DNA of 64,000 bases from Dehalococcoidia bacterium (GCA_030605575.1 JAUWIC010000063.1:254-64253); one strand, 5' to 3'. Numbered from the stretch's first letter, positions 1,135 through 57,981 are shown. Notes: generated by a model from the sequence alone, not told the origin. Program-made: numbers and translations.

Positions 1135-4100
1135 ATGACGAAGAAAGAGGCAAAGAAAGAAAAGGGGGCTAGCAAGATGCCCCCTTTTAATATTACCGAG
1201 CACAAGCCGATGGAGGAAGAAATGAGAAAACTAAGTTCTGCTATTGAGCAGTCGATCGACGGTGTAGCCATAGCTGACCTGGAACCAAAACTGACATATG
1301 TTAATGATGCTTTTGCCCGGATGCACGGTTATTCCCGTGAAGAAATGATGGGAATGAAAGTTGTCAACCTACATAATGAGGAACAGATGGACGAATACCA
1401 GAGGAGTATGAATCAGATAAAAACACAGGGTTCATGGGAAGGTAAAATAGGGCGTATTAGAAAAGACGGAACACCTTTTGCCACCTACATGTCGGTTAGT
1501 TTATTGAAAGGTGACGACGGAAAGCCCAAAGGAATTGCGACCGTTGCCACCGACATCACCGAGCACAAGCCGACGGAGGAGGCACCAGGACAAGACCAGA
1601 CCGAGTTAGAAAGACGAATGGAGGAACGAACTACAGAGCTGGTAACAACTAACGAAGTATTACAGGCTGAAATCACTAAGCGCAAGCAGGCAGAGGAGAG
1701 GCTAAAGATATTATTTGAATATGCACCAGATGCTTATTACTTGAACGACTTAAAAGGTAACTTCGTTGACGGCAATAAAGCTACCGAGGAAATAACTGGC
1801 TACAAGAGAGATGAATTAATTGGGAAGAGCTTTTTAAAACTACACCTGCTACCACGAAGCCAAATCCCAAGAGCGGCTGCGCTTTTAGTCAGAAATGCTC
1901 TGGGGAAAGCCACTGGACCAGATGAGTTTACTCTAAATCGGAAAGACGGCAGTCAGGTTCCAGTGGAAATAAGGACATTCCCAGTAAAAATTAAAGGTAA
2001 AACTTTGGTGTTAGGCATTGCCCGCGACATCACCGAGCGCAAGCAGGTAGAGAAGGAGATGAGGATTAAGGATAATGCTATTGCCTCGTCCATGAACGCT
2101 ATTGGCATAGCTGACCTTGAAGGTAATCTGACCTACGTAAACAATACCTTTCTCAAAATGTGGGGATATGCCGATGAGAAGGAGATTCTGGGGAAGAATG
2201 CTGTAGAATTCTGGCAGGTAGCAGAAAAGGCTGTGGAGATAATGCAAGTAGCGATGGAACGAGGGGGCTGGATAGGTGAACTAGCCGCCAAGAGAAAGGA
2301 CGGCTCAATCTTCGATGTCCAGCTGTCAGCAAGCGTGGTTAAAGATGAAGCTGGCAGGCCTATTTGCAGGTTGGGTTCTTTTGTTGACATCACCGAGCGC
2401 AAGCGGGCGGAGGAGGAGCTCAAACGCTCAAAAGAATTCTCGAAAACTGTCCTTGACAGCACTAATGATGCTATCTCCCTCATCGATGTTCATGATTTCA
2501 GGATAGTCGGAGTCAACAGTGCCTTGCTGAAGCATCTTGGGTTGAAAGAAGAAGAGGTCATAGGGAAGACCTGTTACCAGATAAGCCATCACCGGTCTAA
2601 ACCATGTACAGGACCGGATAACGTCTGCCCCCTCTCGGATACCGTAGCCAGCGGAAAGTACTCCGCAGCCGAGCATGTGCATTGCCGTGCGGATGGTGAA
2701 AAGATATATGTAGAGGTGTCTACATCTCCAGTAAAAGATGAAAATGGAAAGGTCATACAGGTTGTTCACGTATCAAGGGACATCACCGAGCGCAAGCGGG
2801 CGGAAGAGGCGCTAAAAGACTCTGAAGAAAGGTATAGAAGCCTGATAAACAACGTGAAATTAGGCATACTTAGGTCGACACCGGGACCCCCAGGCAGGAT
2901 ACTGGAAGTGAATCCCGCCATGGAAGAGATTACCGGCTACTCCAAGAGAGAGCTCCTGAAGATGGATATTTCTGAGTTGTATGTGTATCCAGAAGAAAGA
3001 GAAGCCCTCGTTCAGGAATTAGCCTCAACTAGAGGGAAGGTAGTAAGGGAACTACGCTGGAAGAAAGAGGATGGGACGGAAATGGTGGTGTTGAATAGAG
3101 TGATGGCGGTAAGAGACGATACGGGCAAGGTTCTATATTTGGATGCCATTATGGAGGACATCACCGAGCGCAAGCAGATGGAGGAGGCACTGGTCGATGA
3201 AGCAATCCGACGGCGTATCCTAATCGATCAGTCCAGAGATGGGATCGTTATCCTTGATAAGAATGGCAAGGTATATGAGGCGAACCAGCAATTTGCCGAG
3301 ATGCTCGGATACTCCCCCAAGGAAGCCGCTCAGCTCCATGTGTGGGATTGGGATACTCAGTGGCCACGCGAGCAACTGCTCGAGATGATCCGGAGTGTTG
3401 ACGCAGCCGGTGCCCAATTCCAGACGTACCATCGTCGCAAGGATGGTACGGTCTATGACGTTGAAATCAGCACCAATGGGGCCGTGTGCGCGGGTCAGAA
3501 GCTGGTCTTCTGCGTGTGCCGGGACATCACCGAGCGCAAGCAGATGGAGCAAAGGATAGAGCACCTCAACGCCGTGCTTCAAGCTATTCGCAACGTTAAC
3601 CAACTCATTGCCCGAGAAAAAGACCGCGATAAGCTGCTCAAAGGTGTCTGCGACAATCTCATCCAGACTCGTGGCTATTATATCGCCTGGCTGGCTATAT
3701 TGGATGAGTCCGGAGGGCTGGTAACCACCACTGAAGCTGGTTTGGGTAAAGACTTCCTGCCAATGGTCGAGTTACTGAAGCGTGGCGAGTTGACCGATTG
3801 CGCTCAGAGGGCACTGAGGCAATCGGAAGTGGTGGTAACCGAAGCCCCAGCCTCCACCTGCGTTGACTGTCCTCTAGCCGGCATGTTCCGTGGCAAGGGG
3901 GCAATGACTATCGGTTTGGAACATAAAGGAAAGGCCTACGGGGTGTTGTGTGTCTCCATTCCCCGAGCTCTTGTCACCGATGAGGAAGAGCAATCTTTGT
4001 TCAAAGAACTCGCCAATGATATTGCTCTCGCCCTGCACAACATAGAACTGGAAGAAAAGCACAAGCAATCGGAGGTGGCTTTGAAGCAGTCGGAGGAGAA

Positions 4101-5229
4101 GTATAGAACCTTGTTTGAGCAAAAGCTTGAGGGTGTAATCGTTATTGATGAAACAATGAAACTATTGCTGGCTAATCAAGCCGCCACAGAAATGTTTGGC
4201 TTGGATTCTGTGGGGGAAGTGCCTGAAGTGAACCCATTCGATTTCGTTCCCTCAGAGGAAAGAGAGCGAGTTCTCACCATTATAACCAAGGATATGTTTG
4301 GAAATGACCAGCGGCAGGTCAATGAGTTTCGGCTGATAAACAAGGCTGGTAAGGAAATGTGGATAAGCGCAGTTGGTGCACGGACTGAATATCAAGGCAA
4401 AGCAGCCGGTTTGGTTTCACTTAGAGACGTCACTGAGCGCAAGCGGGCGGAGCAAGAACTTGAGGAAAAGAATAAGCAATTGATGGCACAACAGCAGGAA
4501 CTTATGGAGAAAACCAATGAGGTGGAAGCGGCTAGCCAGGCTAAGTCGGACTTCCTGGCTCATATGTCCCACGAGCTACGCACCCCGCTCAATGTTATTA
4601 TCGGCTTCTCCGAATTGATGGCGGACGGGGTGCCCGGGGATATTAATAGTGAGCAGAAGCAGTGCCTGGACGACATCCTGAGCAGTAGCAAGCACCTGCT
4701 GGGCTTAATCAATGATGTCCTTGACCTGTCCAAGGTAGAATCGGGCAAGATAAAACTCAGGCTGGCTGAGGTTATTCTGCCCGACATCCTGGAAGAGTTA
4801 AAAAGAACTATGACGCCTATACTGGCACCAAGAAAGCAAAACCTTGATATCGAGGTAGAAAAGGGGCTTTCCCCGGTTTATGCCGATAAAGCCAAAGTAA
4901 AACAGGTACTTTTAAACCTGTTGGGCAATGCCACTAAGTTTACCCCGGATGGAGGCAAGCTAAAGATTGAGGCTATCAAGAAGGGTGGGTGGTGTCACGT
5001 CAGCGTGATTGATAATGGTGTTGGTATCAACAAGGAAGACCAGAAAAAGATATTTGAACCTTTCCGCCAGCTAGACAATCCCCTAACCGGGGAAAAGGGT
5101 GGGGCTGGGCTAGGACTAGCGGTGGTCAAGCAAATTATTGAGAAGCACGGTGGTAAGATTCGGGTCGAGAGTGAATATGGCAAGGGAAGCCGGTTTACCT
5201 TTACTCTACTACTAGCCCCAGTCGTTTAG
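1135..5229 (+). CDS. Multi-domain sensor histidine kinase (7 PAS, 1 GAF, HisKA, HATPase_c)
   Basis: PAS-length blocks are each closed by a DITE(R/H)K...EE linker. The kinase core shows an H-box HMSHELRTPLN, an N-box NLLGNATKFT, G1 DNGVGI and G2 GGAGLGLAVV. I saw no obvious TM segments. Confidence 0.9.
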   Translation: MTKKEAKKEKGASKMPPFNITEHKPMEEEMRKLSSAIEQSIDGVAIADLEPKLTYVNDAFARMHGYSREEMMGMKVVNLHNEEQMDEYQRSMNQIKTQGSWEGKIGRIRKDGTPFATYMSVSLLKGDDGKPKGIATVATDITEHKPTEEAPGQDQTELERRMEERTTELVTTNEVLQAEITKRKQAEERLKILFEYAPDAYYLNDLKGNFVDGNKATEEITGYKRDELIGKSFLKLHLLPRSQIPRAAALLVRNALGKATGPDEFTLNRKDGSQVPVEIRTFPVKIKGKTLVLGIARDITERKQVEKEMRIKDNAIASSMNAIGIADLEGNLTYVNNTFLKMWGYADEKEILGKNAVEFWQVAEKAVEIMQVAMERGGWIGELAAKRKDGSIFDVQLSASVVKDEAGRPICRLGSFVDITERKRAEEELKRSKEFSKTVLDSTNDAISLIDVHDFRIVGVNSALLKHLGLKEEEVIGKTCYQISHHRSKPCTGPDNVCPLSDTVASGKYSAAEHVHCRADGEKIYVEVSTSPVKDENGKVIQVVHVSRDITERKRAEEALKDSEERYRSLINNVKLGILRSTPGPPGRILEVNPAMEEITGYSKRELLKMDISELYVYPEEREALVQELASTRGKVVRELRWKKEDGTEMVVLNRVMAVRDDTGKVLYLDAIMEDITERKQMEEALVDEAIRRRILIDQSRDGIVILDKNGKVYEANQQFAEMLGYSPKEAAQLHVWDWDTQWPREQLLEMIRSVDAAGAQFQTYHRRKDGTVYDVEISTNGAVCAGQKLVFCVCRDITERKQMEQRIEHLNAVLQAIRNVNQLIAREKDRDKLLKGVCDNLIQTRGYYIAWLAILDESGGLVTTTEAGLGKDFLPMVELLKRGELTDCAQRALRQSEVVVTEAPASTCVDCPLAGMFRGKGAMTIGLEHKGKAYGVLCVSIPRALVTDEEEQSLFKELANDIALALHNIELEEKHKQSEVALKQSEEKYRTLFEQKLEGVIVIDETMKLLLANQAATEMFGLDSVGEVPEVNPFDFVPSEERERVLTIITKDMFGNDQRQVNEFRLINKAGKEMWISAVGARTEYQGKAAGLVSLRDVTERKRAEQELEEKNKQLMAQQQELMEKTNEVEAASQAKSDFLAHMSHELRTPLNVIIGFSELMADGVPGDINSEQKQCLDDILSSSKHLLGLINDVLDLSKVESGKIKLRLAEVILPDILEELKRTMTPILAPRKQNLDIEVEKGLSPVYADKAKVKQVLLNLLGNATKFTPDGGKLKIEAIKKGGWCHVSVIDNGVGINKEDQKKIFEPFRQLDNPLTGEKGGAGLGLAVVKQIIEKHGGKIRVESEYGKGSRFTFTLLLAPVV

Positions 5230-5254
5230 CCCTATTCAAAGGAAAGAAACCGCC

Positions 5255-5641
5255 ATGAAAGAGAAAATACTAATTGTAGAAGACAATCCCCTAAATATGA
5301 GACTGATTGAGATGACCCTTAGGCCGAAGGGCTATAGGCTACTCGGGGCGACTGACGGGGAAAAGGCACTAGATATGGCTACCAGGGAGAAACCAGACCT
5401 CATTATAATGGATATATCCCTTCCCAAAATGAGCGGGCTTGAAGTAACCAAAAGACTGAGGCAGATGCCAGTCTTCAACCATATCCCCATTATTGCCGTT
5501 ACGGCTCATGCTATGAAGGGAGACGAGGTAGAGATTATTGACGCCGGGTGCGATGCCTACTTACCCAAACCAATCAATACTCGCCAGTTACCTGAAGTGA
5601 TTGCAGAACTGCTTCGACAACGGACAAAAGATGGTACTTAG
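5255..5641 (+). CDS. Single-domain response regulator (CheY-like receiver)
   Basis: Receiver motifs are present: ILIVEDNP, DLIIMDISLP (phospho-Asp), VTAHAMKG and YLPKP. Confidence 0.9.
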   Translation: MKEKILIVEDNPLNMRLIEMTLRPKGYRLLGATDGEKALDMATREKPDLIIMDISLPKMSGLEVTKRLRQMPVFNHIPIIAVTAHAMKGDEVEIIDAGCDAYLPKPINTRQLPEVIAELLRQRTKDGT

Positions 5642-5659
5642 CACCCGGGGGAAACGGTA

Positions 5660-6361
5660 ATGACCAAGAAAATCCTTATAATTGATGACGACCCCGCCTT
5701 TCTTAATCTGATTGAGCAGGTTCTTACCCAGAAAGGATACGAGGTGCTCAAGGCTAGGAGTGGGCGGGAAGGGCTACGGCTTATCTTTGACCAGAGACCA
5801 GATTTAGTGCTTCTGGATGTGATGATACCCGGCATAGATGGCTGGCAGGTTTGCAGCCGCATCCGTGAAATTTCTGATATACCGATCATTATGATTACTG
5901 GTCGGCACAAGTCCGAGGAGGACGTAGTGCGTGGGCTTGACCACGGAGCCGATGACTACATCACCAAGCCAGTGGGGAGTAGGGAACTGGTAGCCAGGGT
6001 GCGAGCAGTATTACGCCGCGCCGAGTTGCCCTCCTCGCAGGATATAAGGCAGGGAGTTATCTATAGCGATGGCCTCCTTACCGTTGATATTACTGAGCGG
6101 AAGATTATAGCGGATGGCAAGCGGATTAAGCTCACCCCGAGAGAGTTCCGCTTGTTTGCCCTCCTGGTAGAGAATGCCGGCCGTATTCTTACCCACAAGC
6201 AGCTCCTGGAAAAGGTATGGGGCTGGGAATATACTGATGACCTGGATTATGTGCGCATCTACATCTCACATCTGCGTCAGAAGATAGAACCAGACCCCAG
6301 CCTGCCCCGATACATCATAACTGAACCCGGAGTAGGCTACTCCTTCCAGAAATTCGGCTAA
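5660..6361 (+). CDS. OmpR/PhoB-family DNA-binding response regulator
   Basis: The receiver domain shows ILIIDDDP and LLDVMIPGIDG. The winged-helix output shows LTPREFRLFALLVENAGRILTHKQLLEKVWG...GVGY. Confidence 0.9.
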   Translation: MTKKILIIDDDPAFLNLIEQVLTQKGYEVLKARSGREGLRLIFDQRPDLVLLDVMIPGIDGWQVCSRIREISDIPIIMITGRHKSEEDVVRGLDHGADDYITKPVGSRELVARVRAVLRRAELPSSQDIRQGVIYSDGLLTVDITERKIIADGKRIKLTPREFRLFALLVENAGRILTHKQLLEKVWGWEYTDDLDYVRIYISHLRQKIEPDPSLPRYIITEPGVGYSFQKFG

Positions 6362-6689: not shown

Positions 6690-6938
6690 TTGAACAAAGA
6701 GACAACGGCGGAAACTACAGCTAAGGGTAGAACCTCAGGGGCATTTAGATGCCTAAACTGCTTCACTAGAATCAGCCCACCCAAGGGAGCAAAAACCTAT
6801 AAATGTCCCAATTGTAGTTTTGAGTGGCGTGTATCCTGGCCCCGGCCCAACCTGCCCAGGATAAGGGGACCGGTATGGGAGGTAAACAGGCGCTTAGCTG
6901 AGGAAGCTATGGTTAAAAAGGAAAAGAGGCGAGAGTGA
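6690..6938 (+). CDS. Small zinc-ribbon protein (hypothetical)
   Basis: Two CxxC pairs (CLNC...CPNC) are present. It has a TTG start and its stop lies 4 nt before the AOR start, which suggests translational coupling. Confidence 0.4.
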   Translation: MNKETTAETTAKGRTSGAFRCLNCFTRISPPKGAKTYKCPNCSFEWRVSWPRPNLPRIRGPVWEVNRRLAEEAMVKKEKRRE

Positions 6939-6942
6939 ATAT

Positions 6943-8850
6943 ATGGCGCTAAATAGGAAGATAGCCTATATTAATCTGACTAAAGGTAAAATTGAGGTAA
7001 AGTCCATTCCAATCAAGCTGCGGAAGCTGTTTCTGGGTAGTAGAGGGTTGGATATGTATTTAATGTATAACCATATAGAGCCCGGCACTGACCCTCTGGG
7101 AGCGGATAACGTGGCTCTGATTAGTGCCGGGATTCTGGTTGGTACCCTAGCTTCGGCTTCAGCTAGAACCCATATCGGGGGCAAGTCACCGCTTACTGGC
7201 TTTGTCGGCAGTACCAACATGGGTGGTTTCTTTGCTCCCGAAATGAGATGGGCTGGCTTTGACCACCTGGTAATAAAGGGAAAGGCAGAAAAACCAGTCT
7301 ATTTGTGGGTTCATAATGGTGAAATTGAAATAAGAGATGCCTTAAACATCTGGGGGAAGGATGTTCATGAGACCCAGGAGATTATTCGGGAAGAACTGGG
7401 CGATAGAGATATAAAGATACTGACCATAGGTCTGGCCGGTGAAAAGCTGGTGAGGTACGCCAATGTTATGACTGAGCTCAAGAATGCGGGGGGCAGGTCG
7501 GGGATGGGGGCCCTACTCGGCTCCAAGAACCTCAAGGCAATAGCAGTTAGAGGCACCATGGATATTAAAATAGAGCACCCTGATGAAGCCCTGGAATATA
7601 ATAAGAGGCTAATCAGCCAGGTAACCTCGGCTAAGGTGTCTCAAGAACAGGGAAAGTTAGGTACGACCTTCATCTGGGGGGCAACTAATAGTCAGGGTCT
7701 GGTCAGAGTTAGAAACTTCCAGCTTAATCAGCTTGAGGAAGCTGATGATATTGAGCCGGAAGCTCTTGAGGAATTTAGCCTGGGCATGGCTGGCTGCTTC
7801 GGCTGCCAGGTCCACTGCCGAGGTAAATATATTATACCTAGTGGCCCCTACACCGGGGTTTATGATGAGGGTCCCGAATATACCTCAATGGGTGCCTGGG
7901 CGGCTGAGCCAGGCTGTAGAAACCCCCTTACTATTTTGGTATGCAATCACCTGGTAAATAGCTACGGTCTGGATACCCTGGAGACAGGTAGCATGATTGC
8001 CTGGGCAATGGAGCTATATGAAAAGGGTATTCTGACCAATAAGGATACCGATGGCTTAGAGTTGAGGTTTGGTAATGATGAGGCGGTCATTGAGATGGTG
8101 CATCGTATTGCCCGAAGGCAGGGGCTAGGCGATATCCTGGCTGAGGGACCGCTACGAGCCGCGGAGAAGATAGGCAAGGACTCTGCCCAATATTTAATTC
8201 ATGTAAAAGGTATGAGTAACCTCCACTCTGATGAAAGGCCAACCCCATCTCTGGCACTGGGTATAGCCACCAGCTCCAGGGGTTCTGACCACTTGAGAAG
8301 CCGACCAGCGATTGACTTGTATCATCTACCTGAGCCTATTCTCAGAAAGATATATAGTCAACCGGTAGCTTATGACGGTCCATTAACCTCAAATTTTACC
8401 GACTACGAGGGAAAACCGTGGCAGGTTATATGGCAGGAATTATGCTTTGAGGCGGTAGATTGCCTTGGTATATGTAAGTATCACACGTTATTCCTTGGCC
8501 CCAACTTTCCCAACTTTGATGAGTGGTCTAAATTGCTTTACTACAACACCGGGTTAGAGCTATCGCCGCTGGATATCTGGAATATAGCTGATAGAGCTTA
8601 CACTATGGAGAGGCTGTTTAACATCAGGGAAGGACTGACCAGAAATGACGACTGGCTGGTTGACCGATACTTTGATGAGCCAACCAAACTTGGCATACCC
8701 ATTGTCAGGGGCAAGGTCATAGATAGAGACAAGTTCAGGCAGATGATAGATGAATACTATGAGCTTCACGGCTGGGATGAGAATGGTGTTCCTCGTCCGG
8801 AGACACTCCGCAAACTGGGTATAGACCAGGAGCCATCACATATGCTCTAG
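6943..8850 (+). CDS. Aldehyde:ferredoxin oxidoreductase (AOR) family tungsten/molybdopterin enzyme, catalytic subunit
   Basis: AOR hallmarks are present: GGFFAPEMRWAGFDHLVIKGKAEKPVYLWV, the 4Fe-4S motif CFGCQVHC plus DCLGICKY, EGPEY, and SSRGSDHLRS. Confidence 0.9.
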   Translation: MALNRKIAYINLTKGKIEVKSIPIKLRKLFLGSRGLDMYLMYNHIEPGTDPLGADNVALISAGILVGTLASASARTHIGGKSPLTGFVGSTNMGGFFAPEMRWAGFDHLVIKGKAEKPVYLWVHNGEIEIRDALNIWGKDVHETQEIIREELGDRDIKILTIGLAGEKLVRYANVMTELKNAGGRSGMGALLGSKNLKAIAVRGTMDIKIEHPDEALEYNKRLISQVTSAKVSQEQGKLGTTFIWGATNSQGLVRVRNFQLNQLEEADDIEPEALEEFSLGMAGCFGCQVHCRGKYIIPSGPYTGVYDEGPEYTSMGAWAAEPGCRNPLTILVCNHLVNSYGLDTLETGSMIAWAMELYEKGILTNKDTDGLELRFGNDEAVIEMVHRIARRQGLGDILAEGPLRAAEKIGKDSAQYLIHVKGMSNLHSDERPTPSLALGIATSSRGSDHLRSRPAIDLYHLPEPILRKIYSQPVAYDGPLTSNFTDYEGKPWQVIWQELCFEAVDCLGICKYHTLFLGPNFPNFDEWSKLLYYNTGLELSPLDIWNIADRAYTMERLFNIREGLTRNDDWLVDRYFDEPTKLGIPIVRGKVIDRDKFRQMIDEYYELHGWDENGVPRPETLRKLGIDQEPSHML

Positions 8851-8878
8851 TGGTCATAGGGAAAGGTGGTGTTTATCT

Positions 8879-9373
8879 ATGCCAAAAATGCTGGTAGTAA
8901 ATTACGATAAATGCACTGGTTGCCGTTTATGCGAGCTGGTCTGCTCGGTTAAACACGAAGGGGTTAGTAACCCTTCACGAGCCAGAATCCATATTACCAA
9001 GTGGGAAATGGAAGGGATAATGATGCCCATGGTCTGCAACCAGTGTGAACCAGCACCGTGCATAGATGCTTGCCCGACCAATGCTCGCTCCTGGGACGAG
9101 CATTTGGGCAGGGTAGTAATCGACTATGACCGCTGTATTGAGTGTAAGACATGCGTAGCCGTATGCCCTTTTGGGGCAGTGAGTTTTGACCATGTTGCCG
9201 GCAGGATAATCAGTTGCGACCTGTGTGATGGTGACCCCGCATGTGTTAATTTCTGCGAGACCGAAGCCATACAATATGTTGACGCCAGCGAGATCAATAA
9301 GAGGCGGCAAAGAGAAGCCGCCGAGAAGCTCTATGAATCAATGCGCAAATTTACTATGGCACCTGCTGGTTAG
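8879..9373 (+). CDS. Poly-ferredoxin-like 4Fe-4S subunit (four Cys clusters)
   Basis: Four cluster motifs are present: CTGCRLCELVC, CNQCEPAPCIDAC, CIECKTCVAVC and CDLCDGDPACVNFC. Confidence 0.85.
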   Translation: MPKMLVVNYDKCTGCRLCELVCSVKHEGVSNPSRARIHITKWEMEGIMMPMVCNQCEPAPCIDACPTNARSWDEHLGRVVIDYDRCIECKTCVAVCPFGAVSFDHVAGRIISCDLCDGDPACVNFCETEAIQYVDASEINKRRQREAAEKLYESMRKFTMAPAG

Positions 9374-9424
9374 ACAGCAGTTCCAGCTGCGTCTAGCTGC
9401 CAGTGTAATCCGTAAGGCATAATT

Positions 9425-10687
9425 ATGAAGGTCATTGTCATCGGCAACGGAGTTGCCGGCAATACTGCCAGCTCCACTATTCGGCGTCTTGATGGCCAGG
9501 CTGAGATTACGATAATCTCTGAGGAGATATACCCTGAGTACTCGCCCTGTGCTCTTCCCCAGTACCTCGCTGGTGAACTCAGCAGACCGAATGTATTTCT
9601 AAGAACCAAAAGGGATTACTCCAGAGAGAGGACCAAAACCATCTTCGGTCAAAAAGTCACCAGCATCAGCCCCGAAGATAGAAGGGTGTCCTTGGATACC
9701 ACGAGTTTGACCTATGACAAGCTCATTATTGCCACCGGCAGTAAGCCTGTAATGCTCCCCATCAAAGGTACGAATCTTGATGGGGTCTTCCCTCTAAAGT
9801 CACTGGGGGATGCCGACCAAATCTTCCATTATACTGGCAACACCGCGGTAATAATTGGCTCCGGCCCTATAGGTGTAGAAACGAGTGTAGCTTTGAGTAA
9901 ACGAGGACTGCAGATTTACCTGATAGAGGTGCTTAATCGGATAATGCCCAGAGTATTTGATGAAACGCCTTCATCTCTGCTGAGGGGTATCCTCGAAGAA
10001 CGAGGGGTCAGGGTATTAACTGGAGAGAAGGTGATAAGCATCGTTGGTAACGGTAAGGTAGAAGGCATAGTTACCGACAAACACCGGATAAAATGTGATA
10101 TGGTAGTCCTCGGCGCCGGCATGAAACCAAATATAGAGTTAGCCCAACAGTCAGGAGTGAATATAGGCGCCCTGGGCGGTATCGCCGTTACCCAGCAGAT
10201 GATGACGAACCTTGATAATATTTACGCCTGTGGTGATTGTGTGGAGACGGAAGACAGGGCTAGTGGCGAACATACACTAAGTCTTCTGTGGCATAATGCC
10301 CGAAGACAGGGTGAGGTAGCCGGATACAGCTGCTCCGGGGTCCCCAAGAGCTACCTCGGGTCAGAGAACATTACCAGCCTGGACATCTTCGGCGTTCATG
10401 CTGTCTCTTTCGGTAGCATAGAAGCTGATGGCAACCAACACCAGGACATTGAGGTAATCGAAAGGTTTTTGGGTAAGAACTACTACCGCCTGATTATTGC
10501 CCAAAGCAGGTTAATAGGAGCTCAATCCATCGGTAATGCTCAGGACATGGGGGCGTTACTATGTGCCCTGATAAGAAGGGATAACCTAAGCGAAATTAAA
10601 CGGGCAATCGACAAAAAAACTCTGCCGCTAAACCCATTGTATTATAGGATAGCCCGATGCTTAGGCCCAAATATCAGACGCCTTTAA
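9425..10687 (+). CDS. FAD-dependent pyridine nucleotide-disulfide oxidoreductase (NAD(P)H-linked)
   Basis: It carries GNGVAGNTA (FAD GxGxxG), a YSPCALPQY redox-Cys-like motif, a second Rossmann IGSGPIGVE, and IYACGDC. Confidence 0.85.
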   Translation: MKVIVIGNGVAGNTASSTIRRLDGQAEITIISEEIYPEYSPCALPQYLAGELSRPNVFLRTKRDYSRERTKTIFGQKVTSISPEDRRVSLDTTSLTYDKLIIATGSKPVMLPIKGTNLDGVFPLKSLGDADQIFHYTGNTAVIIGSGPIGVETSVALSKRGLQIYLIEVLNRIMPRVFDETPSSLLRGILEERGVRVLTGEKVISIVGNGKVEGIVTDKHRIKCDMVVLGAGMKPNIELAQQSGVNIGALGGIAVTQQMMTNLDNIYACGDCVETEDRASGEHTLSLLWHNARRQGEVAGYSCSGVPKSYLGSENITSLDIFGVHAVSFGSIEADGNQHQDIEVIERFLGKNYYRLIIAQSRLIGAQSIGNAQDMGALLCALIRRDNLSEIKRAIDKKTLPLNPLYYRIARCLGPNIRRL

Positions 10688-10709: not shown

Positions 10710-11621
10710 ATGGTAGATAGATTAAAAGATAGAGTGGCTATAGTTACCGGTTCCGGGCAGGGGATTGGCCGAGCCATAGCCCTAGCTATGGCTGCCGAAG
10801 GTGCCAAGGTAGTAACTAATAACCGCCGGCGCGGCACCCCCGGTGGCGATGCTGAGACCACGGCTAAAGAAATTAAGGGGATGGGTATGCCGGCAGTGCC
10901 ATTCTTTGGCAGCGTCTCTGAGTTTGATGTCGCCCAGAAACTAATACAGTCGGCGGTAGATAACTTTGGCCGGCTTGATATCTTGGTCAACAACGCTGGT
11001 GCTGATGCCCCCCGAATGGTCTGGAATATGACTAAAGAAGATTGGGGTATATGTGTTGACTCTTTCCTCAAGGGCTCTTTTAATTGCACTCGCCATGCCT
11101 GCGTCAGAATGAGAGAGCAGAGATGGGGAAGGATAATTAATACCACCTCTACCGCCTGGCTGGGGGCGGTGGGGCACTGTAATTATGGGGCAGCTAAAGC
11201 TGGCATTGTCGGTCTAACCAGGAACGTTGCCCGAGAGATGGGCAGGTACGGAGTAACTTGCAATGCTTATGCGCCGACGGCAGCTACTCGGTTTACCCTC
11301 AATGAGGAGGTATTAGCCGGCTTCAAGAAACGTTATGAGGCTGGTCTTATGACCAGGGAGCGATTTGAGGAGTTAACTCACCCACCACCCCCGGAAACAG
11401 TAACCCCGTTCATAATCTACCTATGCGCTGACGAAGCCGCTGATATCAATGGTCAGGTTTTTGATGTTACCGGCAATAATATTGCTATTTACTCGGAGCC
11501 GGTAAAGAAGAAGGTGCTCGGGAAGGAAGAAGGCTTGTGGTCAGTAGAAGAGTTAATCGAGCAAGTACCCAGGGTATTACTGGAAGGATACCAGAACCCA
11601 GCCCCACCCCGGCTTCAATAG
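10710..11621 (+). CDS. Short-chain dehydrogenase/reductase (SDR)
   Basis: SDR motifs TGSGQGIGRAIA, NNAG and YGAAK (YxxxK) are present. Confidence 0.85.
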   Translation: MVDRLKDRVAIVTGSGQGIGRAIALAMAAEGAKVVTNNRRRGTPGGDAETTAKEIKGMGMPAVPFFGSVSEFDVAQKLIQSAVDNFGRLDILVNNAGADAPRMVWNMTKEDWGICVDSFLKGSFNCTRHACVRMREQRWGRIINTTSTAWLGAVGHCNYGAAKAGIVGLTRNVAREMGRYGVTCNAYAPTAATRFTLNEEVLAGFKKRYEAGLMTRERFEELTHPPPPETVTPFIIYLCADEAADINGQVFDVTGNNIAIYSEPVKKKVLGKEEGLWSVEELIEQVPRVLLEGYQNPAPPRLQ

Positions 11622-11765
11622 CAACTGGCGGCGACACCACTTAAACTTGACACCGCAAGTGACAGACCTTAAGATTACAGCGTAAAATTAAAGCCATATT
11701 ATAATTCACAGTTCTTTGACAAAGAGGGGTTGCGTCCAGGCTGACAGAGAAAATCTAACCAATTA

Positions 11766-12938
11766 TTGTCCAATTTAAAGGCATTTATGCAAGAAGTAGC
11801 TATTGTTGGGGCAGGGCAAAGTGTATTCTCTCGCAATTGCGGCATGTCAATTCGCGAGCTCTGCTTTGAGGCATATAAAGAAGCAATTGAAGGGCTGAAT
11901 CTCTCCCATAAGGAAATTGATGCCTCTATTATCTGCTCGGCACCGGAGTATGATAAACAGCGTACCCCGGCGGCATTAATATCAGAGTATCTAGAGCTGA
12001 CACCAAAACCCACATTCTATATAGAGAGCATTTGCTCCTCCAGCAGTACCGGGTTAAGAGTGGCATGGTCGCTGATAAAATCGGGGCTTCACCAGGTTAT
12101 AGCCGTGATAGGCTTCCAGAAAATGTCTGAGTTGACCTCTCGTGAGGCGGCGGAGCGGATGGGCAGGGGGGACGATATAATGTTTGGGTCACCCTTGGGC
12201 ATAACTATGCCCGCAGGATATGCCATGTATGCCCATGCCCATATGGCTAAGTATGGCACCACCGAGGAAGACCTAGCCTTGATAAGAGTTAAGAACTCAA
12301 ACTATGGAGCCATGAATCCCAAGGCTACCTATCGCAAAGCATTGAGCCTGGAGGAAATACTAACTTCCGATGTTATTTGCAGTCCATTAAAGAAATACGA
12401 CTGCTGTGCCAATGCTGATGGCTCGTCCTGCCTCCTTATTGCCAGTGCCGAGAAAGCCAAAAAGATAACCAGTAAACCGGTATGGATAATGGGCATAGGC
12501 ATGGGGACATCCGAATTGAACATGAGTGCCCGAGAATCGCTAACCAGTTTGAACTGTGCCCGGGAAGCGGCACGGCAGGCCTACCAGATGGCGGACCTGG
12601 GACCGGAAGACATAGATGTAGCTGAAGTCCATGATTGTTTTACCATCGCTGAGCTCTTAGCCTATGAGGACCTGAGATTTGCCCAACCCGGTGAGGGGGT
12701 TAGGTTAATAAGAGACAAACAGACATATGTTGGCGGTAAGATTCCAGTAAATACCGATGGCGGCTTGTTATCTAAAGGGCATCCCATTGGGGCTACCGGG
12801 GGCTCTCAGATAAGAACCATAGTCAGGCAACTCAGGGGAGAGGCGGGAGAAACTCAGGTTGAGAATACCCAAATAGGGCTAATTCACAATGTAGGCGGGG
12901 TGGGTACATACGCCAATGTTACCATCCTGGGGAGGTAA
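11766..12938 (+). CDS. Thiolase-like protein (SCP-x/non-acetoacetyl type), partner of the following DUF35 protein
   Basis: It shows VAIVGAGQS, an active-site region IESICSSSSTGL, C-terminal NTDGGLLSKGHPIGATG, and HNVGG. The start could instead be the ATG at 11787. Confidence 0.85.
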   Translation: MSNLKAFMQEVAIVGAGQSVFSRNCGMSIRELCFEAYKEAIEGLNLSHKEIDASIICSAPEYDKQRTPAALISEYLELTPKPTFYIESICSSSSTGLRVAWSLIKSGLHQVIAVIGFQKMSELTSREAAERMGRGDDIMFGSPLGITMPAGYAMYAHAHMAKYGTTEEDLALIRVKNSNYGAMNPKATYRKALSLEEILTSDVICSPLKKYDCCANADGSSCLLIASAEKAKKITSKPVWIMGIGMGTSELNMSARESLTSLNCAREAARQAYQMADLGPEDIDVAEVHDCFTIAELLAYEDLRFAQPGEGVRLIRDKQTYVGGKIPVNTDGGLLSKGHPIGATGGSQIRTIVRQLRGEAGETQVENTQIGLIHNVGGVGTYANVTILGR

Positions 12939-12946
12939 TAGGCGAA

Positions 12947-13360
12947 ATGGGATTTGAAAAATTCGGTGTCGTCAGCTTCACCTCGGATGCCAAAGTAGCC
13001 CCATTGGTGGACTATCTGGAAAAAGGCAAGGTTATGATGACGAAGTGCCAGCAGTGCGGAAAAGCGTTCTTTCCTCCGAAAGCTGATTGCCCGCGGTGTG
13101 TGTCCAGTAACGTGGAATGGCTTGAGATCAGCAGTATCGGCACATTGCTTGCTTTTACCGTAGTCAATTACGGTCCGTCAGGATTTGAGAACGATACACC
13201 TTATACTCTGGGGATAGCTGAATTCGAGGAAGGGGTGAAGGTACTGGGTCGAGTAAGCAAGGCGATTAGTCCCGAGGATGTCAAGGTCGGAATGAGAGTC
13301 AAGCTGGCTCCGCTAAAGCTAGCCAATGAACAAATTATCTATGAGATGCAAAGGAGCTAG
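12947..13360 (+). CDS. DUF35 OB-fold / zinc-ribbon acyl-CoA-associated protein
   Basis: A zinc ribbon CQQCGKAFFPPKADCPRC is followed by an OB-fold-length C-terminus. It lies immediately after the thiolase-like gene. Confidence 0.8.
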   Translation: MGFEKFGVVSFTSDAKVAPLVDYLEKGKVMMTKCQQCGKAFFPPKADCPRCVSSNVEWLEISSIGTLLAFTVVNYGPSGFENDTPYTLGIAEFEEGVKVLGRVSKAISPEDVKVGMRVKLAPLKLANEQIIYEMQRS

Positions 13361-13423: not shown

Positions 13424-14494
13424 ATGGCCAAGATACCAGATAAAATTGAAACATGGCAGATGACCGAGCCGGGGAAACTAGCTAGAGTGAGCCTCGATGT
13501 CCCTGAATTACAGGCGGGAGAGGTACTGGTTGAGATTGCTGGCTGCGGGGTATGCCATACCGACCTGGGATACTTTTATGATGGCGTACCTACGGTGACC
13601 AAACCACCGCTAACCCTGGGGCACGAAATTAGCGGCATAGTAATAGCTGGCGATGGCGGATGGATAGGCAAAGAGGTAATTGTACCCGCGGTAATGCCCT
13701 GCAATAAATGCCCTATTTGCGCCAGTGGCCGAGGCAATCGCTGCCTGGCCCAGAAGATGCCGGGAAATAGTATGGGGATTTACGGCGGCTTTTCCAGTCA
13801 TATTGTGGTGCCCTCTGAAGATTTGTGTGTGATTGAGGATAAGAAGGGAACGCCGCTCCCGCACTTCGCCGTAATTGCCGATGCCGTAACTTCGCCTTAT
13901 CAGGCAGCAATAAGGGCTGAGGTTAAACCCGGGGATTTGACTGTTGTGGTTGGTGCTACCGGAGGTCTCGGCATCTATGCTACTCAAATTTGTTCCGCCT
14001 TAGGGGCTAAAGAGGTGGTTGGCATTGCCCGCAATCCCAAGAAGCTGGAACGAGCTCTGAAATATGGGGCCACCCGTACTATTAGTACCGTGGATAAGAG
14101 TGCCAGGGAGGTTAGGGATGAATTCCGGAGCTACAGCAAAGAAAAGGGGCTGCCCGTTTATGGCTGGAAGATATTTGAGTGGAGTGGCACAGCAGTAGGG
14201 CAAGAGATTGCTTTAGACCTGCTGTCCTTCGTTTCCACACTGATTATAGCCGGTTATGGGATGCAAAAGAACGAATATCAGCTATCAAGGTTAATGGGAT
14301 TTGACGCCGACATCAAGGGCACCTGGGGTTGTTTACCTAAATACTATCCCGAAGTCCTCAAGATGGTCCTGGAAAAGAAAATAGAAATAGAGCCCTTTAT
14401 CGAGACCAGGCCAATGAGCCAGATTCAGCAAGCATTTGAAGATGTCCACAAGGGGGGATTGGACACAAGGATAGTGCTAATCCCCGACTTTTAA
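13424..14494 (+). CDS. had: Zn-dependent alcohol dehydrogenase family; probable 6-hydroxycyclohex-1-ene-1-carbonyl-CoA dehydrogenase (Had/BamQ-like)
   Basis: It has GCGVCHTDL, GHEISG and the NAD motif GATGGLG. The functional call rests on its position directly upstream of the oah-like gene. Confidence 0.65.
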   Translation: MAKIPDKIETWQMTEPGKLARVSLDVPELQAGEVLVEIAGCGVCHTDLGYFYDGVPTVTKPPLTLGHEISGIVIAGDGGWIGKEVIVPAVMPCNKCPICASGRGNRCLAQKMPGNSMGIYGGFSSHIVVPSEDLCVIEDKKGTPLPHFAVIADAVTSPYQAAIRAEVKPGDLTVVVGATGGLGIYATQICSALGAKEVVGIARNPKKLERALKYGATRTISTVDKSAREVRDEFRSYSKEKGLPVYGWKIFEWSGTAVGQEIALDLLSFVSTLIIAGYGMQKNEYQLSRLMGFDADIKGTWGCLPKYYPEVLKMVLEKKIEIEPFIETRPMSQIQQAFEDVHKGGLDTRIVLIPDF

Positions 14495-14526
14495 CTTAAC
14501 TAAATAAAAAATAATGGAGGTATTAA

Positions 14527-15669
14527 ATGGCTTTAGACTGGATACCAAGGGACAATGTATTAAAAGACCATCAGCTTTTCGGCGATGAGCACTTGGGCAC
14601 CGAGCCACCGTGCACCATGTTTGAGAAGAAGCCGCTGATTAACCCTAACACTGGGGGGGAGGTTGAGGGTCTTTATACGGCCTGGGTCACCCTCAACAAT
14701 CCTGCCCAGTATGGTTCCTACACTACAGAAATGGTAAAGGGAGTTCAGGCCGGTATGCACAAGGCATCAATGGACAGGAGTGTCGTTGCCACCATATTTA
14801 CTGGCACCGGTGACCGGGCATTTTGCACCGGTGGTAATACCAAAGAATATGCCGAGTATTACACCAAGAGACCAAAGGAGTATGCCGACTACATGGACCT
14901 TTTCTCAGGTATGGTGGATGGCATCCTGAAGAGCCGGGTTCCGGTAATCTGTCGGTGTAACGGCATGCGGGTCGCTGGCGGTCAGGAGATTGGTCAAGCT
15001 TGCGACCTTACTGTAGCGGCTGATACTGCTCAATTCGGTCAGGCAGGGACAAGGCATGGTTCTACGCCAACCGGCGGCTCCAGCGATTTTCTGCCGTGGC
15101 AGTTGCCAACCACCGAACTGGCAATGTGGAACTGCTTCTCCAATGAAATGTGGAGCGCTTACAAGATGGAAAGGCTGGGCTTCATCACCAAGGCTGTGCC
15201 GATTAAGAAGAACGACAAGGGGGAGTGGGTAAGAGACCCGAGGGTTATCACTGATAAATATGTGGAGAACGGTGAGATAGTTTACGGTGAACTTAGGAAA
15301 GGGGACGAATTAAAACAGGCTAAGGATACTCTAAAGGGGCTTCAAACTGACTGGTCGCTGCTTGACGACTACATAAATAGAATGGTCTGGACCATAGCCA
15401 ACCTCATGCCTCTCTGCCTGATGACGACCGTTGAGTCTATAAGAATGAAGAAGAAGTCCTTCTGGGATGATACTAAAGTTTATTCCATGTACTGGCTGGC
15501 AGCCAATATGAATGCCGAAGCCTGGCTCGGCTTCAATGCCTTCAACACTTCAGACCTCACCGGTCAAAGGACTATAGATTTCATCAAGTACCGCCAGCTT
15601 GTAGCGCAGGGACACCAGTATGATGATGCGTTGATGGAAGCCGTTATGCCCAAACTCAAGCCACAGTAG
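14527..15669 (+). CDS. oah: 6-oxocyclohex-1-ene-1-carbonyl-CoA hydrolase (Oah/BamA-like ring-cleaving crotonase)
   Basis: This is a 380-aa enlarged crotonase. The stretches HLGTEPPC...GLYTAWVTLNNP..YGSYTTEMVKGV and GDRAFCTGGNTKEYAEYY match my memory of Oah/BamA. That match is recalled, not computed. Confidence 0.7.
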   Translation: MALDWIPRDNVLKDHQLFGDEHLGTEPPCTMFEKKPLINPNTGGEVEGLYTAWVTLNNPAQYGSYTTEMVKGVQAGMHKASMDRSVVATIFTGTGDRAFCTGGNTKEYAEYYTKRPKEYADYMDLFSGMVDGILKSRVPVICRCNGMRVAGGQEIGQACDLTVAADTAQFGQAGTRHGSTPTGGSSDFLPWQLPTTELAMWNCFSNEMWSAYKMERLGFITKAVPIKKNDKGEWVRDPRVITDKYVENGEIVYGELRKGDELKQAKDTLKGLQTDWSLLDDYINRMVWTIANLMPLCLMTTVESIRMKKKSFWDDTKVYSMYWLAANMNAEAWLGFNAFNTSDLTGQRTIDFIKYRQLVAQGHQYDDALMEAVMPKLKPQ

Positions 15670-15691
15670 TTGAGCTCATCAAATTAGTAAT

Positions 15692-15727
15692 AGAAAGCCC
15701 GGGGTACACTCGGGCTTTCTATTTTTC
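15692..15727 (+). terminator. Rho-independent terminator after oah
   Basis: AGAAAGCCCG / CGGGCTTTCT form a 10-bp stem with a 9-nt loop, followed by ATTTTT. Confidence 0.6.
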
Positions 15728-15731
15728 CCGT

Positions 15732-15760
15732 TTGACAAAGAGATACGCATGGGCTAGCAT
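15732..15760 (+). promoter_or_regulatory. Sigma70-like promoter (TTGACA-N17-TAGCAT)
   Basis: TTGACA lies at 15732-15737 and TAGCAT at 15755-15760, about 90 nt upstream of the 15852 start. Confidence 0.4.
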
Positions 15761-15851
15761 TGTTGAGGTCAGGTATGCCATCCTACGTACCGCGTTCTAA
15801 CCGAGGACATTACGGTAAATAACAGGTCAAACAGCATTCAGAGGAGAAGAT

Positions 15852-16622
15852 ATGGAGTTTCAAAATATTACCTTGGAGAAGCAGGAAGGCATAGCCAAAC
15901 TCACTATTAACCGACCGCCGGTTAATGTAATCAATTATGATGCTCTGGTAGAAATCAATGCTGCCCTGGAAGAGTTAGGCAAGGATGAAGCGACGAAGGT
16001 TTTACTAATCCGCGGGAGTGGGAACCGGGCTTTCTGCGCCGGGGTAGAGGTAAAAGACCACCTTGGAGAGATGATGCCCAAGATGATGAGAGAATTTGGC
16101 AGGATGTTCCGGCTTTTGAGAAACCTGGGCAAGCCAAGCATTGCTGTGGTCAATGGTGTGGCTTTGGGGGGCGGCTGTGAGCTTGTTGCCGGCTGCGATA
16201 TGGCTATTGCCTCGGAGAAGGCTGCGCTTGGTCAGCCGGAGATAAAACTGGGTGGTTTAGCGCCGGCGGCGGCTCCGTTGTTTCCCAGGATAATGGGAGA
16301 GAAGAAGGCTTTCGAGCTTATTCTCCTGGGAGAGAACGTAAGCGCCAAGGAAGCCGAGCGAATTGGCTTAGTCAATAAAGTCGTAGCGGAAGAAGAACTG
16401 GACAGCACCGCCGAGGAACTTGCTGGCAAGTTCCTGGAGAAAAGCAGCCTCGGTGTCAGGCTCGTCAGAGACGCTTTTTATCAATGCGCTGATACCGCTG
16501 AATTCGATGAAGCTATGCAGAAAGGGGTAGAGCTGGGGATAAAGACCTGGGAAACAGAGGACGGTCAGGAAGGCTTGAAATCCTTCCTGGAGAAAAGGAA
16601 GCCTATCTGGAAGAATAAGTGA
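15852..16622 (+). CDS. Enoyl-CoA hydratase/crotonase; possibly cyclohexa-1,5-dienecarbonyl-CoA hydratase (Dch/BamR-like)
   Basis: The crotonase fold shows GNRAFCAGVEVKDH, VNGVALGGGCELVAGCD and GQPEIKLG. The specific role is inferred from the had-oah neighbourhood. Confidence 0.8.
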   Translation: MEFQNITLEKQEGIAKLTINRPPVNVINYDALVEINAALEELGKDEATKVLLIRGSGNRAFCAGVEVKDHLGEMMPKMMREFGRMFRLLRNLGKPSIAVVNGVALGGGCELVAGCDMAIASEKAALGQPEIKLGGLAPAAAPLFPRIMGEKKAFELILLGENVSAKEAERIGLVNKVVAEEELDSTAEELAGKFLEKSSLGVRLVRDAFYQCADTAEFDEAMQKGVELGIKTWETEDGQEGLKSFLEKRKPIWKNK

Positions 16623-28134: not shown

Positions 28135-28356
28135 GACAGTAGCTTAACTGATACAATATGTCGCGGCAAAGTTGGTGGTGAAGCTAAGAAGTTTCATGTA
28201 TCAAAACAGCGTTTAGGTGCCAGGGAGATGAGAGGAATACCATTCAGGAAGTAAGTATCTATACCCTTAACAATATTAGGTTTCCACTACTGACATACAC
28301 CGGTACCTTTCACGGTGACCTGTACTGCGGGAAAATATGTTTTTCAGGAGGTTAAT

Positions 28357-33557: not shown

Positions 33558-33593
33558 GAATCCTCAGCCGAGAATTGGCAGGAGGTAATAAAA

Positions 33594-57799: not shown

Positions 57800-57858
57800 A
57801 CTTTAAAAATCTTATTTAGCCTCCCAACTAAAAGTTTAACATTCTGGCCGTATCTTCT

Positions 57859-57887
57859 ATTTTATGATAGGCTATTTAGTTTTGCAA
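57859..57887 (-). promoter_or_regulatory. Sigma70-like promoter TTGCAA-N17-TAAAAT for the repeat-protein gene
   Basis: Read on the minus strand, TTGCAA lies at 57887-57882 and TAAAAT at 57864-57859. Confidence 0.35.
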
Positions 57888-57923
57888 TACAAACCCGGTT
57901 AAAGATAAAAAAATATATAGTAA

Positions 57924-57953
57924 TTGACATTATTCTATAAATATGCCTAAAAT
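57924..57953 (+). promoter_or_regulatory. Sigma70-like promoter TTGACAT-N17-TAAAAT for tubulin-like paralog 2
   Basis: TTGACA lies at 57924-57929 and TAAAAT at 57948-57953, within an AT-rich 182-bp divergent region. Confidence 0.4.
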
Positions 57954-57981
57954 AATGAAATTCTTAATAATGGGGTGAGAA

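Follow-up and report, generated by a model that had tools for sequence, protein, structure and literature searches.

The window analysed here, a 64,000-nucleotide stretch from a Dehalococcoidia bacterium (GCA_030605575.1, JAUWIC010000063.1:254-64253), carries a compact module of four genes encoding a zinc-ribbon protein (Znr), a pterin-dependent catalytic subunit of the AOR family (L), a polyferredoxin (S) and an FAD/NAD(P)-binding flavoprotein (N). The catalytic subunit belongs to a widespread, uncharacterised AOR/WOR branch that has its own zinc-ribbon protein. Comparison of active site residues and overall sequence indicates that it is very probably an orthologue of neither AorB, from the NAD-linked AorABC, nor the benzoyl-CoA reductase subunit BamB. 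Our preferred reading, to which we assign a probability of roughly 55%, is that the module is an NAD-linked oxidoreductase, neither AorB nor BamB in type, acting on a non-standard and probably anionic substrate in aryl-CoA catabolism.

A preliminary description of the window had placed four tightly linked genes here, and their open reading frames (ORFs), coordinates and lengths were confirmed (Table 1); the intergenic gaps measure 4, 28 and 51 nt. The motifs it quoted are all found in the translations, CFGCQVHC (residues 285-292) and DCLGICKY (506-513) in L and YSPCALPQY (39-47) in the flavoprotein. L matches the Pfam families AFOR_N (2e-72, 243.5 bits with a cutoff of 29.8) and AFOR_C (3e-111, 372.6 bits with a cutoff of 27). 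The S protein matches several Fer4 and 4Fe-4S dicluster families, and its 16 cysteines, which fall into four CxxCxxCxxxC-type motifs as had been described, are enough for four [4Fe-4S] clusters. A twin-arginine translocation (Tat) motif is absent from its N-terminus (MPKMLVVNYDKC). The flavoprotein has a Pyr_redox_2 domain (9e-63), the Rossmann motifs GNGVAG and GSGPIG, and a weak Rubredoxin_C match (1.2e-5, 25.6 bits) below the 25.9 cutoff.

Active site and family placement of the catalytic subunit

A phmmer search of the PDB with L returned Pyrococcus furiosus AOR (PfAOR) as the top match (1.5e-106). Next in rank are 9mqx_D (2.6e-98), which carries the annotation aldehyde:ferredoxin oxidoreductase, AorB (1.9e-85), FOR and BamB (7.7e-68), with WOR5 and WOR83 more distant. 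Sequence identity is 36-37% to PfAOR, 33-34% to AorB and 28-29% to Geobacter metallireducens BamB. Proteins within the AOR subfamily share at least 50% identity, and 33-34% is the level found between subfamilies (Arndt et al., PMC6365974, Table 5). The reference sequences of PfAOR, 9mqx_D, 9g7j_A, AorB and FOR are near-complete and were recovered from HMMER output, with lengths that match the chain coordinates; that of BamB was recovered from the alignment to a true BamB orthologue at a related locus (L025).

Aldehyde-oxidising members of the family conserve a second-shell tetrad of Thr243, Glu313, Tyr427 and His448. The hallmarks of BamB are Cys322, a protein ligand to tungsten conserved in all BamB and YdhV proteins, and Glu251/His255/Glu257/His260, which provide a Zn site and proton conduit (PMC12096430, PMC13328260). 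The four [4Fe-4S] ligands (PfAOR Cys288/291/295/494) and the Mg/pterin-site Asn93 are kept in the window protein and in all 77 clade members, and the window protein also keeps Thr243, Glu311, Tyr312 and His448. The catalytic Glu313 is replaced by Thr314 (Thr in 76 of the 77 clade members), Tyr427 by Ser429 (Ser in 77/77), and the Pro of the LYPVKNF motif by Arg255 (Arg in 75/77). This last column is that of BamB His260, anchored by the conserved NF motif, and all three lie within ungapped blocks of the HMMER and MAFFT alignments.

No Cys occurs in L at or near the BamB Cys322 column, which is occupied by Pro or Asp depending on the alignment, within a GPEYTS segment that lacks Cys. A check for this ligand in a structure-guided alignment had been suggested; in the sequence alignment made here, the BamB-type proteins of loci L008, L025, L031 and L052 retain Cys322. 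The columns of BamB Glu251/His255/Glu257/His260 hold Ile/Ser/Gly/Arg. A further candidate substitution, Tyr452 to Arg, was withdrawn: HMMER inserts six residues and aligns PfAOR Tyr452 with Tyr460, while MAFFT disagrees. Compared with PfAOR, some 30 residues are inserted after the catalytic His. The extreme C-terminus of L (8827-8850) carries a conserved EPSH(M/L)L tail that AOR, AorB and FOR lack and that is confined to the superclade described below.

Two other identities were considered and ruled out. The NCBIfam YdhV model covers only the N-terminal third of L (190 bits with a cutoff of 868), and assignment to Class V/YdhV (clade 41) fails for want of a Cys ligand and a Tat signal. A glyceraldehyde 3-phosphate-oxidising GOR or GAPOR was dismissed given a GAPOR model score of 36 bits, a normal GAPDH gene in the window and the lost tetrad, all four residues of which are retained in GOR (PMC12096430).

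The wider family is large and uniform. Over 120 database clusters share 72-97% identity with L; almost all are exactly 635 residues long, and they come chiefly from Chloroflexota under the sole name 'AOR family protein'. A scan limited to a single genome for each species yielded 391 relatives, and the top 80 were examined as loci (L numbers). These 80 are 66-84% identical to L, and all derive from metagenome-assembled genomes (MAGs) of Dehalococcoidia, Anaerolineae, Desulfobacteraceae, other Thermodesulfobacteriota, Gemmatimonadota and Acidobacteria. In a 50%-identity library of 1.84 billion representatives, the clade is a single representative (69%), with the next relatives at 50%, 47% and then about 40%.

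A neighbour-joining (NJ) tree was built from 91 sequences and 625 columns of a MAFFT --auto alignment with 200 bootstraps, on a reference set from which WOR4, GOR and GAPOR were absent. It recovers the clade in 200/200 replicates, inside a 29-member superclade (172/200) that contains no characterised reference. PfAOR, 9g7j, AorB and 9mqx group elsewhere, a second AOR-family protein of the window falls near them, and the BamB-type proteins are far off. Among the 145 nearest full-length representatives, Glu313 is kept in 69 and the canonical tetrad in 38; Arg255 without Glu313, as well as the C-terminal EP(S/T)xx(L/I) tail, is found in the superclade only.

The preliminary description had left the choice between an AorABC-type enzyme and a BamB-like reductase, and had named placement inside the AorB/AOR clade together with the lack of BamB-specific residues as deciding for the former. 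The residues are indeed lacking (Cys322 and Glu251/His255/Glu257/His260), yet the protein lies outside AOR sensu stricto. Neither description suits the catalytic subunit: its distance from AorB and the loss of Glu313 and Tyr427 speak against the one, and the low identity to BamB, the missing Cys322 and the presence of genuine BamB genes beside the module in four loci against the other. None of four taxon or genome names that were searched for occurs in the supplementary tables of the WOR classification paper, and no paper on this clade was found in literature combining Dehalococcoidia, benzoyl-CoA, AOR and tungsten; papers on benzene degradation and a review on polycyclic aromatic hydrocarbons mention canonical BamB only.

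A more remote superclade member, the 50%-identical P0122, is encoded on a JGI contig within a redox cluster that includes a second AOR, a 106-residue protein with no Pfam match, NrfD, a ferredoxin, a further Mo enzyme of the bis(pyranopterin guanine dinucleotide) (bis-PGD) type, DsrC, and DsrM- and DsrK-like proteins. This contig ties the superclade to electron transfer of membrane and DsrC type.

Partner proteins and related loci

The 82-residue ORF that opens the module has no match in Pfam or NCBIfam. It is nonetheless a real gene, a conserved partner of L and a hallmark of the clade, since there are 100 clusters of homologues and the position upstream of the AOR gene is conserved. The homologues are 77-138 residues long, none has a Pfam domain, and they are called 'hypothetical' or left unnamed save for a few generic zinc-ribbon labels. 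By tblastn, 77 of the 80 related loci have a homologue immediately 5' of the AOR gene and in the same orientation; in the other three the contig ends there. The 47%-identical relative P0123 (locus L081) is also preceded by an ORF, with an RC..C...KCP.CG..WRV signature.

Cys21/24/39/42 make up the zinc ribbon, and the PRIRGPVW tail is invariant. Thirteen residues are invariant among the homologues (R20, C21, C24, R27, R47, W50, P56, R57, I58, R59, G60, V62 and W63), a set that takes in two of the four Cys and several Arg. An AlphaFold2 model is of moderate confidence (mean pLDDT 76). Foldseek matched it to generic zinc ribbons of the PDB only (RBR RING2, LysW, RNA polymerase and ribosomal proteins; best E 0.14), with no subunit of a W- or Mo-enzyme among the matches. 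The earlier remark that this ORF lacks a counterpart in the AorABC and BamB systems holds, as none has been described for a tungsten enzyme. A role as fourth subunit or assembly factor is probable.

The electron-transfer subunits bear out the AorABC-like composition that had been pointed out. S finds its best PDB match in AorA (8c0z_C, 6.3e-38; BamC 8.2e-14), and the flavoprotein aligns with AorC (8c0z_E, 2.9e-45, 31% identity) over residues 1-396 against 1-402, whereas NADH oxidases align to its first 330 residues only. The corresponding NCBIfam hits are PadI for the FeS protein (2e-29) and PadH for the FAD protein (3.4e-63), both far below the equivalog cutoffs. For comparison, the BamC-like protein of L025 has 12 Cys against 16 in the window S subunit. 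Cys42 of the flavoprotein YSPCALPQY motif corresponds to the redox Cys of Nox/CoADR-type enzymes, where Aromatoleum aromaticum AorC has Met; the AorC-like partners of L008, L017 and L069, read at their N-termini, share this Cys in a YS.CALP motif. Its retention may point to a thiol/disulfide role rather than plain NAD reduction.

Gene neighbourhoods were scored for 77 loci: the window and those 76 of the 80 related loci that could be indexed. The only genes constant among them are Znr, L and S, and S lies immediately 3' of L wherever the contig continues. The gene after S is ThiS/MoaD-like in 23 loci, often with a MoeB-like E1, and serves cofactor maturation as for aorD/E. Other loci have at this position a Fer4_8 Fe-S protein with or without CCG, a GltD-like NAD(P)H module, an HdrA-like protein, or NrfD with a second ferredoxin. 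An AorC-like flavoprotein follows the FeS gene in only 5 of the 80 related loci, with MoaD after the FAD gene in L008 and L017. Such variation in partners is what one typically sees where a catabolic dehydrogenase is coupled to different acceptors.

Genes of aromatic catabolism recur around the trio. At least one of had, oah and dch lies within 10 kb in L027, L036, L044, L062, L066 and L080, in differing arrangements; including the window, 7 of the 77 scored loci are so linked (binomial P ~1e-6 against a 0.7% expectation). PaaK-type ligases are found nearby in 8 loci, IclR regulators in 19 and PaaX in L008 and L052, while thiolase, ACAD and electron-transfer flavoprotein genes also recur. In Anaerolineae, the trio has HGD-D and BcrAD-type ATPase genes in its vicinity, resembling a benzoyl-CoA reductase (BCR) of class I.

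Four loci, L008 (Dehalococcoidales), L025, L031 and L052, carry BamB-type genes with intact Cys322 (58-77% identity to Geobacter BamB) no more than 10 kb from the trio. BamC-like proteins are encoded alongside, and L008 and L025 have BamD-like ones as well. These genes are oriented divergently from the module in L008 and in tandem with it in L025 and L031. The module therefore accompanies ring reductases rather than replaces them. The L008 and L031 BamB copies form a subgroup of 58-59% identity with Ala/Asp at the positions of Glu251/His255, which may be a paralogue acting on a different aryl-CoA.

Genes around the module in the window

Table 1. Features of the module, its surroundings in the window and the BamB-type regions of related loci.
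Feature	Coordinates	Strand	Details
Zinc-ribbon small protein (Znr)	6690-6938	+	82 aa, TTG start, GAGG 5 nt upstream
AOR-family catalytic pterin/[4Fe-4S] subunit (L)	6943-8850	+	635 aa; AFOR_N + AFOR_C
Polyferredoxin subunit, WorS/AorA-like, four predicted [4Fe-4S] clusters (S)	8879-9373	+	164 aa
FAD/NAD(P)-binding subunit, AorC/PadH-like (N)	9425-10687	+	420 aa; Pyr_redox_2
PAS-rich histidine kinase (1364 aa), single-domain response regulator, OmpR-type response regulator	1135-6361	+	Translations
SDR, SCP-x-type thiolase, DUF35/ChsH2 OB-fold protein	10710-13360	+	Pfam, NCBIfam; short gaps
had, oah, crotonase (dch-like): lower benzoyl-CoA pathway	13424-16622	+	TIGR03201, TIGR03200; third ECH_1 only
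Cytoplasmic Mo/W-bis-PGD enzyme, acetylene-hydratase-like	16732-18783	+	Best PDB match 2e7z 2.5e-100, then FdhF, PsrA
Second AOR-family gene, stand-alone	29290-31146	+	618 aa; Glu313 kept, His at Tyr427
BamB-type region, locus L008	833-4513	-
BamB-type region, locus L025	7115-10895
BamB-type region, locus L031	18929-21417
BamB-type region, locus L052	5679-7820	-

The module directly adjoins the last gene of an upstream regulatory set (5660-6361; Response_reg and Trans_reg_C), in place of which related loci carry IclR or PaaX regulators. Read by eye, the translation of the histidine kinase in this set (1135-6361) shows several sensor-type repeat segments. Downstream, the SDR, thiolase and DUF35 proteins likely serve 3-hydroxyacyl-CoA oxidation and thiolysis. 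The preliminary description had put had-oah-dch 3 kb downstream of the module; had (TIGR03201, 482 bits with a cutoff of 339) and oah (TIGR03200, 474 bits with a cutoff of 464) do start 2.7 kb downstream, but the 'dch' gene is supported as a crotonase-family protein only. Beyond this block, the opposite strand encodes a thiolase, a crotonase, a 3-hydroxybutyryl-CoA dehydrogenase and an ACAD resembling glutaryl-CoA dehydrogenase. Given these genes and the had, oah and crotonase block, the window carries the lower benzoyl-CoA pathway. As had been stated, no other dearomatising reductase is in view: tblastn of the 64-kb window detected neither a BamB orthologue nor class I BCR genes (HGD-D, BcrAD ATPase). 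The same searches found no HdrA, CCG, MoaD, MoeB, NrfD or BamD-like gene.

The same-strand block is closed by the gene for the Mo/W-bis-PGD enzyme, which scores below all NCBIfam cutoffs and is without the Asp found in acetylene hydratase after the second cluster Cys. The trio has homologues of this enzyme (at least 49% identity) in its vicinity in L008, L031, L038, L046, L066, L074 and L080, adjoined in L066 and L080 by an NrfD gene and a second ferredoxin gene; the enzyme may work together with the AOR-like one. The second AOR-family gene of the window is preceded by a DUF169 gene (28315-29112) and is more likely than the module to be the organism's general aldehyde oxidoreductase.

An Rfam scan of the window returned one tRNA only. 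Promoter-like sites (19 against 17.7 +/- 4.3 in shuffled sequence) and terminator-like sites (22 against 14.4 +/- 4.2) are not clearly in excess, and no + strand terminator-like site lies in the gaps between the eleven genes. Promoter-like sites (10/12) are present in the gaps of 144 nt and 182 nt that precede the thiolase gene and the dch-like gene.

Several more distant genes were also observed. A corrinoid (B12-binding) protein and a URO-D-family methyltransferase-like protein (32958-34931, +) are followed by a CoA ligase, an SCP-x thiolase, a DUF35 protein and a FadB-like protein, an arrangement that resembles O-demethylase/methyl-transfer systems for methoxylated aromatics; L008 holds a homologous URO-D-like gene. 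A tubulin/FtsZ-family protein with a CetZ-type C-terminal domain (57982-59157, +; Pfam CetZ_C 1.3e-15) is encoded in a window that is otherwise bacterial (LigA, Pth, DnaX). CetZ is usually considered archaeal. A 711-residue ORF with no Pfam match (55664-57799, -) overlaps the segment of most extreme composition, 56001-58000 (GC skew -0.32, AT skew -0.27).

Proposed function, alternatives and significance

We propose that the Znr-L-S core and the AorC/PadH-like flavoprotein would form a four-protein oxidoreductase of an uncharacterised tungsto(molybdo)pterin clade of the AOR/WOR family. Electrons would leave the substrate at the pterin metal and pass through the single [4Fe-4S] cluster of L and the four of S to FAD and on to NAD(P)+, or in reverse, a path that homology to AorABC makes likely. 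The active site appears to have been rebuilt, with the Glu313 base and Tyr427 gone and an invariant Arg placed at the pocket position of BamB His260; because of these changes an ordinary aldehyde substrate is unlikely. The aryl-CoA, PaaK, PaaX and benzoyl-CoA context suggests instead an intermediate of anaerobic aromatic-acid catabolism (aryl-CoA, phenylacetate or benzoyl-CoA), which would be low-potential, probably anionic and of carbonyl type. An arylglyoxylate or a carboxylated aldehyde is a concrete candidate. The arylglyoxylate idea draws on the PadI/PadH-like character of the FeS and FAD subunits, and on the co-conserved acetylene-hydratase-like Mo/W enzyme, which in other loci, with NrfD and a ferredoxin beside it, is Psr-like; a Psr-like architecture has been reported for PadBCD. 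An oxidative direction is suggested for the FAD-linked form because the reduction of benzoyl-CoA calls for about -650 mV at a BamB-type cofactor. NADH (-320 mV) does not reach this unless bifurcation is involved, nor can it be provided by a partner that is a simple flavoprotein, GltD or NrfD (PMC12096430). We hold the substrate class and the oxidative direction only tentatively, at somewhat less than even odds.

Several points weigh against this proposal. The substrate class rests on three residue changes and the gene neighbourhood. Thr243, Glu311, Tyr312 and His448 are kept, so aldehyde chemistry is possible, and with Glu313 lost in half of the 145 nearest representatives, tetrad loss is common and by itself not diagnostic. 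The Tyr452-to-Arg change depends on the alignment, and the tree is an NJ reconstruction on a MAFFT alignment with references taken from HMMER output. In most related loci housekeeping genes flank the trio; the link to aromatic catabolism recurs but is not universal.

The module could simply be an ordinary AorABC-type, broad-spectrum aldehyde:NAD+ oxidoreductase with a dispensable zinc-ribbon protein, detoxifying aromatic aldehydes such as phenylacetaldehyde and benzaldehydes or channelling them to an acid/CoA-ligase/benzoyl-CoA route. The best PDB matches of L are AORs, AorA is the best match of the FeS subunit and AorC a full-length one of the FAD subunit, an L+S+N composition is known for Class III (PMC13328260), CoA ligases lie nearby, and His448, Thr243, Glu311 and Tyr312 persist. 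We consider this unlikely all the same: practically no clade member retains Glu313 or Tyr427, while the characterised aldehyde-oxidising clades all keep at least the Thr and the Glu (PMC12096430). The identity to AorB stays at the between-subfamily level (PMC6365974) for a protein outside AOR sensu stricto, the gene order is Znr-L-S-N and not aorA-B-C-D-E, and the window already has a more canonical AOR (Table 1). In a different view, the loss of aldehyde-type second-shell residues, which BamB shares, would mark a new dearomatising or aryl-CoA-reducing tungsten enzyme, BamB-like in function but different in mechanism, that takes the place of BCR in the operon. The module heads a same-strand block for the benzoyl-CoA pathway in 64 kb that hold no recognised BCR, is recurrently linked to had, oah and dch, and has elsewhere HdrA-like or Fe-S/CCG partners that recall the logic of BamDE. 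This too is improbable, and slightly more so, in light of the missing Cys322 ligand, the I/S/G/R in place of the BamB Zn and proton-relay residues, the 28-29% identity to BamB and the four small-subunit clusters rather than three. Moreover, genuine BamB-type genes (L008, L025, L031, L052) and class-I-BCR-like genes (Anaerolineae) adjoin the module, and NAD(P)H acting via a simple flavoprotein cannot reach the potential needed (PMC12096430).

That adjacency to BamBCD-like genes, divergent in L008 and tandem in L025 and L031, might also indicate a low-potential electron-input module feeding a neighbouring BamB-type or class I reductase via the polyferredoxin rather than NAD, for which a polyferredoxin chain would suit inter-complex wiring. 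Such a role would be without precedent, the window has no BamB-type gene, and the FAD, GltD and NrfD partners indicate NAD(P) or quinone as the terminal partner, making it highly improbable. A bolder reading, doubtful but less so than these alternatives, is that Znr-L-S enzymes constitute a third mechanistic AOR type, beside the Glu313-keeping aldehyde oxidisers and the Cys-ligated BamB/YdhV. It would serve an unassigned pterin-dependent step of anaerobic aromatic degradation in uncultured Dehalococcoidia, Anaerolineae and Desulfobacterota. Candidates would be a decarboxylating arylglyoxylate oxidoreductase replacing PadEFGHI, perhaps with an acetylene-hydratase-like analogue of PadBCD, or a Cys-independent aryl-CoA reductase; the zinc-ribbon protein would then be an integral active-site or channel subunit.

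Among the closest known systems is AorABC of A. aromaticum (PDB 8C0Z; WOR Class III, clade 87), with which the module shares the pterin/[4Fe-4S] large subunit, the four-cluster polyferredoxin, the FAD/NAD subunit and the predicted electron wire, in which five clusters connect the metal with FAD and NAD. The gene orders differ, S-L-N-MoaD-MoaD for AorABC and Znr-L-S-N followed by SDR for the module, with no MoaD-like gene in the window. Only the module clade has the extra, obligatory zinc-ribbon gene, its FAD partner is present in a minority of members, and AorC has Met at the position of the Nox/CoADR-type Cys of the window flavoprotein. BamBC of G. metallireducens (PDB 4Z3W) likewise pairs an AOR-family L with a polyferredoxin and shows partial second-shell loss and had/oah/dch linkage. 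None of its Cys322 ligand, His260 and Glu251/His255/Glu257 is found in the module, however, BamC has three clusters rather than four, the BamDEFGHI genes lack counterparts in the window, and true BamB paralogues coexist with the module in other genomes. PfAOR (1AOR), a homodimer without partner subunits, shares the fold-defining domains, the cluster Cys, Asn93, Thr243, Glu311, Tyr312 and His448. For the phenylglyoxylate:NAD+ oxidoreductase PadEFGHI, the models of the electron-exit subunits PadI and PadH match the FeS and FAD proteins, and the context comprises PaaK and PaaX in relatives and the benzoyl-CoA pathway in the window; its catalytic part is a thiamine diphosphate-dependent 2-oxoacid:ferredoxin oxidoreductase and not a pterin enzyme, so the parallel is a hypothesis of functional analogy only.

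Of some 92 WOR clades, five have a defined physiological role (PMC13328260). Domain content alone is not enough to annotate modules such as this one as 'aldehyde:ferredoxin oxidoreductase' or BamB. The clade is abundant in sediment and groundwater MAGs and unusually conserved, at 66-84% identity to the window protein across several phyla, and its zinc-ribbon protein represents a type of subunit not yet described for any tungsten enzyme. Repeatedly found next to genes of the benzoyl-CoA pathway and to BamB-type, class-I-BCR-like, PaaK and PaaX genes, the clade is a concrete candidate for one of the missing steps by which strict anaerobes channel aromatic acids into the benzoyl-CoA pathway or power it, which is of particular interest in Dehalococcoidia, whose aromatic metabolism is known from genomes only.

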